The notes under the pieces were generated by a model. That model was not told the origin of the DNA, ran no database searches, and was given only the letters and a program-made list of their open reading frames with translations. A DNA stretch of 64,000 nt. Origin: Escherichia phage vB_EcoM_PTE-Eco15. Position 1 is the first letter of the stretch, and the number at the start of each line of letters is the position of its first letter. A program made the translations under genes and the position numbers. Shown here in pieces: positions 26,473 through 26,526 of the stretch. The stretch lies in the sequence record PQ352352.2; one strand, 5' to 3'.

Positions 26473-26526
26473 TTTACAAGTCCCTCGTGTTGTGTTATAG
26501 TAATCTTACTGACATAACATGAGGAC
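26473..26526 (+). repeat. 54-bp early promoter/5'UTR cassette, copy A (copy B at 39835-39888)
   Basis: gtttacaagtccctcgtgttgtgttatagtaatcttactgacataacatgagga; 52/54 identical to copy B; contains GTTTAC -35, TATAGT -10 and SD gagga. Confidence 0.8.

Follow-up and report, generated by a model that had tools for sequence, protein, structure and literature searches.

The window considered here, i.e., the whole stretch of 64,000 nucleotides of Escherichia phage vB_EcoM_PTE-Eco15 (sequence record PQ352352.2), is classified as Tequatrovirus on its 97–99% identity to many T4-group genomes, and its gene names rest on 97–99% identity to annotated T4-group genomes together with the RefSeq annotation of T4. 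Its plus strand is the early-gene strand. On this strand, two copies of a 54-bp cassette occur at a distance of 13.4 kb from each other. Copy A (26472-26525) follows the stop codon of rnlA (26466-26468) and precedes the ATG codon of alc (26530 or 26533), whose product is a host transcription inhibitor that terminates transcription on cytosine-containing, unmodified DNA. Copy B (39835-39888) overlaps the 3' end of a decayed alt paralogue (ORF 39585-39866) and precedes alt.-3 (39896-40186), a gene of 96 codons. The decayed paralogue is the equivalent of alt.-1/alt.-2 of T4, ORF 39585-39866 corresponding to alt.-2.

The neighbourhood of copy B exhibits some other repeated elements. The alt gene (37422-39473) is followed by the decayed tandem copy of its 5' part, which extends to 39866 with a repeat spacing of 2049-2052 bp; the same arrangement (alt.-1/alt.-2) occurs in T4, and a full-length second alt gene is present in most of the retrieved Tequatroviruses (T2, T6, RB14, RB68, teqskov and others). 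Three near-identical terminator-like hairpins of the GGGACC-GAAA-GGTCCC type are distributed along the window (40193-40209, 54608-54624 and 55966-55982), the first of which closes the alt.-3 unit. The start of alt.-3 (39913-39946) is 71% identical over 34 nt to positions 33779-33812, i.e., the start of a 65-codon ORF (33771-33968) known as 30.5 in T4, and the two genes may possess a common N-terminal module.

The 54-mer GTTTACAAGTCCCTCGTGTTGTGTTATAGTAATCTTACTGACATAACATGAGGA is the sequence of copy A, from which copy B, on the same strand, differs by two mismatches located at cassette positions 27 (T in A, C in B, the third base of the -10 element) and 32 (A in A, G in B). The first-pass annotation had reported this pair of 54-bp segments upstream of alc and of the 96-codon gene with two mismatches, and the 52/54 identity agrees with that count; its coordinates are right for copy B, whereas copy A starts and ends one base earlier than the positions 26473-26526 given there. 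The similarity is sharply bounded, with the G of GTTTAC as the 5' edge and GAGGA as the 3' edge, beyond which the flanks of the two copies are unrelated. Dinucleotide-preserving shuffles (n=100) yielded no match with three or fewer mismatches, and the window's remaining early-type promoters on this strand agree with the cassette at no more than 29 of 54 positions, so that the pair represents more than a promoter consensus. A similarity due to chance or restricted to the generic consensus, the latter being named beforehand as one of the observations that would overturn the claim, is thus ruled out.

Judged from its motifs, each copy is a predicted strong sigma-70 promoter of the T4 early type, combined with a GAGGA Shine-Dalgarno (SD) sequence. 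The promoter core of copy A (26473..26501, +) comprises a -35 element TTTACA (26473-26478), a 17-bp spacer, a TGn motif (26493-26495) and a -10 element TATAGT (26496-26501); that of copy B (39836..39864, +) similarly comprises TTTACA (39836-39841), a 17-bp spacer, TGn and a -10 element TACAGT (39859-39864). The consensus scan gave 10/12 matches for copy A and 9/12 for copy B, and both copies display the features of T4-type early promoters (GTTTAC/TTTACA, 17±1 bp, TAnnnT) as well as the extended -10 TG, so that the -35, the -10 and the SD previously ascribed to each copy were all recovered. A-rich tracts occur upstream of both -35 elements (AAAAATTATAAAAAATTTAT at copy A, CTAAAAAGTTCAAAATGTA at copy B) but outside the repeat. 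The distance from GAGGA to the start codon is 4 or 7 nt for alc, depending on which of the two ATGs is used, and 7 nt for the ATG of alt.-3. Taking the usual distance of 6-8 nt past the -10, transcription is expected to start near the A at 26508 in copy A and near 39871 in copy B, i.e., at about cassette position 37, which corresponds to about 136300 and 123057 on the minus strand in T4 (NC_000866). Neither the GenBank nor the RefSeq record of T4 has a promoter feature annotated at either copy, and the searchable literature yielded no mapped start site for either of them.

With respect to the known early promoters of T4, built of UP, -35 GTTTAC, TGn and -10 elements (Hinton 2010, PMC2988021), both copies contain all of the core elements with A-rich DNA upstream. 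Ordinary T4 early promoters have only this consensus in common, whereas copies A and B also share the spacer and the leader.

In the RNA of the sense strand, the cassette is predicted to fold back on itself. The spacer and TGn (positions 10-25) are paired with the leader and GAGGA (positions 40-54), corresponding to a spacer-leader complementarity of about 19 pairs, and an apical stem of 4-5 bp associates positions 27/28-31 with 36-39/40. The predicted hairpin of copy A (26478..26528, +) has a free energy of -24.4 kcal/mol and a z score, relative to dinucleotide shuffles, of -5.05, none of 200 shuffles being as stable; its 5' arm (26478-26496) consists of the promoter spacer and TGn, its apical stem joins 26499-26502 to 26507-26510, and its 3' arm (26511-26528) belongs to the leader. 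The predicted hairpin of copy B (39843..39890, +) is similarly exceptional (-24.3 kcal/mol, z = -4.69, one of 200 shuffles as stable). In the predicted fold the SD bases G50, A51, G52 and G53 are all paired, to UCC-CUC at positions 11-15; in copy A, GAGGA (26521-26525) faces the UCC-CUC of 26481-26486, and the GAGGA of copy B (39884-39888) pairs in the same way. The -10 element (positions 25-30) is located at the apex, and the 3' arm begins with the base at which transcription is predicted to start, at about position 37. The leaders expected from the cassette's own promoters fold with only -4.8 and -2.2 kcal/mol (z about 0), no better than shuffled sequences. None of the Rfam families covers either copy, and no description of a hairpin at alc or alt.-3 was found in the searchable literature, which does not cover the older T4 literature, so that an earlier notice is possible. 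The inverted repeat enclosing the promoter, as well as its conservation at alc in other genera, are absent from the first-pass annotation.

An inverted repeat of this kind may also be regarded as a DNA-level element, namely a palindromic site for a regulator of both promoters, or a cruciform. The symmetry is centred on the -10 element, where a repressor would act, and it is common to exactly two genes. However, the pairing of the arms uses G-U pairs at 16-49, 21-44 and 25/27-40, which are mismatches as DNA and A-C oppositions on the other strand, so that the pairing is specific to the sense strand and favours RNA over a DNA palindrome. In addition, the arm sequences differ between genera while the pairing is kept (see below), a pattern typical of an RNA helix and not of a site recognised by a protein. 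We thus regard a DNA-level element as very improbable.

The distribution of the cassette was investigated by blastn with the 54-mer, the check proposed beforehand, which retrieved 997 places in about 499 phage records, two in each, with a minimum identity of 92%. The organism names listed are all consistent with T4-group phages, and the records whose taxonomic assignment was read all belong to Tequatrovirus. T4 itself carries both copies, with one mismatch between them, and both copies were read directly upstream of alc and alt.-3 in T2, T6, RB14, RB68 and others. Among 60 of the 499 rows sampled, no full-length genome with a single copy occurred, the sole one-copy record being a partial genome of 113 kb.

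Variation within the genus was analysed in a sample of 41 copies comprising 17 haplotypes, including 17 genomes with both loci; scans of IMG/VR and of metagenomes provided 7 loci each. Across the 17 Tequatrovirus haplotypes, 98.1% of cells remain paired. Most of the changes keep the helix, such as C11U, C13U and C15U opposite G, G16A opposite U, and U27C and G40A at the 27-40 pair, while positions 32-34 belong to the loop; G50A occurs only together with U15, to give a compensatory U-A pair. Pair 15-50 accordingly ranges from C-G through U-G to U-A, pair 16-49 from G-U to A-U, and pair 27-40 from U-G to C-G or U-A. Four changes break a pair, among which G29A turns the -10 element into a perfect TATAAT. 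Because the variation within the genus is too low, covariation does not reach significance there (the observed score is attained by 86 of 500 shuffles), and the diversity of the cassette (3-5%) is similar to that of the flanks.

These last two results, together with the excellent promoter motifs, are what could be expected if the cassette were nothing else than a duplicated strong early promoter and ribosome-binding site (RBS), the inverted repeat being incidental and devoid of any RNA role, and the identity of the copies resulting from selection for promoter strength or from a young age of the genus. As a rule, the spacer of a promoter is under no constraint. Here, on the contrary, it can form about 19 pairs with the leader, with z near -5, the pairing includes three G-U pairs and is specific to the sense strand, and the same layout, with different arms and a matched SD and anti-SD, recurs at alc in six other lineages. 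An incidental repeat consequently appears quite unlikely.

Outside Tequatrovirus, the Alc proteins are at most 60% identical to those of this genus, so that the intergenic DNA between rnlA and alc is effectively unrelated between Tequatrovirus and the others. In six other lineages the rnlA-alc junction nevertheless contains GTTTACA immediately followed by an anti-SD, a -10 element in the loop or close to it, and a 3' arm with the SD at its end. The alc hairpin has a predicted stability of -17.4 kcal/mol (z = -3.6) in Dhakavirus (IME341), -22.6 kcal/mol (z = -4.5) in Jiaodavirus (Mineola), -26.4 kcal/mol (z = -7.3) in Karamvirus (Pet-CM3-4), -25.6 kcal/mol (z = -6.1) in the unclassified Erwinia phage COW86c, -25.7 kcal/mol (z = -5.8) in Winklervirus (CHI14) and -13.5 kcal/mol (z = -2.7) in Gelderlandvirus (Melville). 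In all seven lineages with a hairpin, the four SD bases are all located inside the helix and the anti-SD tracks the SD variant, GGAG being faced by CUCC and GAGG by CCUC. Counting the pairs from the base of the helix inward, 8 of the first 11 positions have changed on both sides among the seven lineages. The design of the hairpin is thus conserved at alc, with compensating changes, in six further lineages (five genera plus COW86c).

The pairs were compared between lineages in each sequence's own minimum-energy fold, anchored at the base of the helix, because MAFFT combined with RNAalifold failed to bring the arms of the alc cassettes of the seven lineages into register and predicted no structure. 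A covariance model built from Tequatrovirus copies only recovers the alc cassettes of four lineages with E values of 3e-4 to 2e-3; the alignment obtained with this model also drew antisense matches, which were left out of the pair counts. At alc, Mosigvirus possesses no hairpin (z = -0.15), so that at least one genus does without the device, and the alc locus of Gaprivervirus VR26 is rearranged, with a partial duplication of alc directly upstream of the gene (18996-19229 of its locus). A further irregularity of this gene occurs in Tequatrovirus Shinka, where alc is annotated as two fragments (15446-16079 of its locus).

At alt.-3 the situation is different. In Mosigvirus, Gelderlandvirus, Gaprivervirus and Dhakavirus this gene is preceded by an ordinary early promoter with no significant hairpin, which resembles the alc cassette of the same genus in consensus only. 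The alc cassettes of Dhakavirus (including JS98, JS10 and IME08), Karamvirus and Jiaodavirus have 2-4 matching places per genome; in Dhakavirus IME341 the extra match was found neither at alt.-3 nor within 18 kb downstream of alc.

Taken together, these features suggest a translational gate. Transcripts initiated at the cassette's own promoter would be devoid of the 5' arm and would leave GAGGA free, whereas transcripts arriving from upstream would carry both arms and have their SD locked in a helix of about -24 kcal/mol. Such upstream transcripts would come from rnlA and earlier genes at copy A, and from a late alt transcript at copy B. A late-promoter motif TATAAATA is located upstream of alt (37394..37401, +) and is the likely source of late read-through into alt.-3; no terminator-like site separates rnlA from copy A or alt from copy B, the first hairpin of this type past alt (40191..40212, +) occurring only after alt.-3. 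The combination of TATAAATA before alt and the lack of an intervening terminator makes read-through plausible. The likely outcome would be that alc, and in Tequatrovirus also alt.-3, are translated from their own immediate-early transcript only. The idea put forward in the first-pass annotation, that the shared leader could confer a common post-transcriptional control, becomes plausible in this respect, since the predicted hairpin hides the Shine-Dalgarno sequence.

The behaviour of copy B may further depend on translation of the preceding gene. In T4 and in the window, the remnant alt.-2 frame ends inside the hairpin, and copy B could thus be opened by ribosomes translating this frame. Most Tequatroviruses have a full-length second alt gene instead; cassette position 1 is the G of its TAG stop codon, and a ribosome terminating there would leave the helix closed.

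Promoters enclosed in hairpins are already known from T4, where e (lysozyme), soc, 49 and I-TevI have a hairpin at the ribosome-binding site with an internal promoter (reviewed in PMC3014915). The cassette resembles these genes in that the SD is part of the 3' arm of a stable helix, the promoter's own transcript is predicted to lack the 5' arm, and longer upstream transcripts are predicted to be translationally silent. It differs from them in two respects: the promoter's own spacer forms the 5' arm and, whereas these four genes have a late (or middle) internal promoter and a hairpin that silences early read-through, the promoter of the cassette belongs to the early sigma-70 type, so that the timing would be inverted. 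The text of PMC3014915 does not mention alc, its T4 examples being e, soc, 49 and I-TevI. The promoters thus appear as ordinary members of the T4 early class, and the cassette as a putative early-promoter version of the promoter-in-hairpin gate.

Another group of comparable elements consists of the promoter-early stem-loop (PeSL) cassettes of T4-type phages (Arbiol et al. 2010, PMC2839356; Comeau et al. 2014, PMC4122927), which similarly associate a compact intergenic early promoter with a stem-loop and an SD, are repeated in the genome and serve as recombination patches. In PeSLs, however, the stem-loop is located upstream of the -35 element and downstream of an AT-rich region, is often of the G4...C4 type and acts as a terminator, whereas in the cassette the sole significant stem-loop encloses the promoter, including the -10, and the RBS, and the sequences upstream of the two copies are unrelated. 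Moreover, PeSL copies share a consensus and flank variable ORFs that are gained or lost, recombination between copies excising the DNA in between, whereas the copies of the cassette are 96-100% identical, number exactly two, have essential genes between them, and show homogenisation, not gain or loss of ORFs, as the visible outcome. With regard to their borders, copy B adjoins the variable alt paralogue, and copy A is located between conserved genes.

The hairpin could also be real and yet serve the upstream gene or transcription instead of downstream translation, as a PeSL-type attenuator or insulator, a stabiliser of 3' ends, or an RNase III-type site for the rnlA and alt mRNAs, the overlap with the promoter and the RBS resulting only from the tight intergenic space of T4. 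The helix is long enough to be considered as an RNase III substrate. The PeSL stem-loops of RB49 and phi1 terminate transcription in reporters (PMC2839356). At the two copies, on the other hand, the helix is not followed by a U-tract and a scan for terminators gave no hit, and the presence of SD bases in the helix, with an anti-SD that tracks the SD in all seven lineages, argues for a role at the downstream gene. A function directed upstream is consequently unlikely, but deserves to be kept in view owing to other hairpins in the window.

Four further early-type promoters of the window (16500-16565, 29448-29515, 32622-32688 and 33014-33086) are associated with significant hairpins (z = -3.2 to -3.9), formed between the spacer and the bases that immediately follow the -10 element. 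The hairpin at 32622 also buries a Shine-Dalgarno sequence, AAGGAG, while those at 16500 and 33014 stop before the SD. Promoter-spanning hairpins may thus be general to the early promoters of this region. Since two of these four hairpins do not include the SD, such a general role may differ from hiding the RBS, which keeps alive the explanation by the upstream mRNA or by an insulator. Just upstream of the early promoter at 32622, positions 32524-32607 weakly match the Rfam family Atu_C8, an sRNA of Rhizobiales (31 bits for a gathering threshold of 50, E = 0.005), probably by chance.

Returning to the gate at alc and alt.-3, the reading which we favour, and consider rather probable, is that of a composite early module, made of a promoter and a hairpin gate, which is old at alc and was copied onto alt.-3. 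The module would be native to the rnlA-alc junction and old there. Since the hairpin is old at alc and absent from the four alt.-3 loci compared outside Tequatrovirus, the simplest account is an overwrite from alc to alt.-3 in the ancestor of the genus, in which the alc module would have replaced the resident promoter of alt.-3. The borders of the repeat correspond to motifs that are common to both promoters in other genera, GTTTACA(A/T) on the 5' side and (C/A)ATGAGGA on the 3' side, and the overwrite apparently took place between the GTTTACA and ATGAGGA motifs, a microhomology of the sort on which PeSL-type exchange relies.

This history differs from that proposed in the first-pass annotation, i.e., a recent modular exchange, with the repeat as a substrate for recombination or deletion between the two loci. 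T4-type phages are known to shuffle early-promoter cassettes by way of PeSLs (PMC2839356, PMC4122927), and the two copies appear to swap alleles, both in line with that proposal. However, the pair is a fixed feature of the genus, occurring at two places each in about 499 Tequatrovirus records (T4, T2 and T6 among them), so that its age is at least that of the Tequatrovirus ancestor, and a recent event or an artefact of the genome of the window is ruled out. No single-copy genome was encountered in the sampled rows except for the one partial record. In addition, the essential genes 30 (DNA ligase) and 31 are located between the copies, so that a deletion by crossover would be lethal, and no deletion variant was found in the 499 records (997 places, 60 rows sampled). 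A recent exchange in this phage that left a deletion-driving repeat is thus contradicted already and has hardly any probability left. What stands of the recombination claim is that the two loci share alleles and haplotypes; its deletion part does not, since a deletion would take genes 30 and 31 with it.

Between the two loci there are no fixed differences. Eight sites are polymorphic at A and 10 at B, of which 6 coincide (hypergeometric P = 2e-4 over 54 sites, but P = 0.02-0.08 if just 20-25 sites are free to vary), and 5 of the 17 haplotypes were found at both loci. Phage ZCEC14 carries a private C12A transversion in both copies. Among the about 499 records, the copy-A haplotype of the window is matched exactly by 37 at locus A and by 48 at locus B, and the C27/G32 haplotype, which has TACAGT as its -10 and is that of copy B in the window (position 27 being 39861), by 110 at A and by 6 at B; the combination of haplotypes at the two loci of the window is uncommon. 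These shared alleles, most of them transitions at sites where the structure tolerates change, could be due to recurrent mutation. The mean A-B distance is 2.0 within genomes against 2.34 between genomes (permutation P = 0.05), the mean A-A and B-B distances being 1.65 and 2.78, respectively. As a proof of ongoing conversion, the within-genome distance was rejected, being marginal and compatible with one old conversion followed by independent drift; an ongoing conversion thus rests on the shared alleles only. Because the distances fit this single old event and the cassette is as diverse as its flanks, an occasional non-crossover exchange between the copies is regarded as probable and nothing firmer, and would probably consist of short non-crossover gene conversion.

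The more extended proposal, according to which the cassette is a temporal gate of inverted timing that prevents any translation of alc from middle or late read-through RNA, present in seven of eight Tevenvirinae lineages examined, transplanted to alt.-3 by conversion and with copies that still evolve in concert, combines several of these steps and is advanced tentatively, at slightly less than an even chance. If the gating is true, the classical T4 paradigm of a promoter inside a hairpin gains a variant with an early promoter, and it would be explained how strictly early expression is achieved in a dense genome with heavy read-through, a point of special weight for alc in view of the activity of its product. 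If it is false, the finding shrinks to two T4 early promoters, already sequenced, that are alike. The case also illustrates how a regulatory module comprising a promoter, a leader and an RNA switch would have moved between genes via a shared motif of about 7-9 bp at each end, and the fact that the copies have stayed alike 13 kb apart bears on the minimal homology for T4-type recombination and on the spread of modules. For engineering near alc or alt.-3, the two promoters have to be considered as recombination partners. Since alt.-3 is the locus of the escape of T4 from the CmdTAC defence (PMC11618068), knowledge of its expression is useful as well.

Another repetitive region of the window, on the minus strand, consists of five units of 68 nt, 60-74% identical, within a probable tail-fibre gene (9474-10450).
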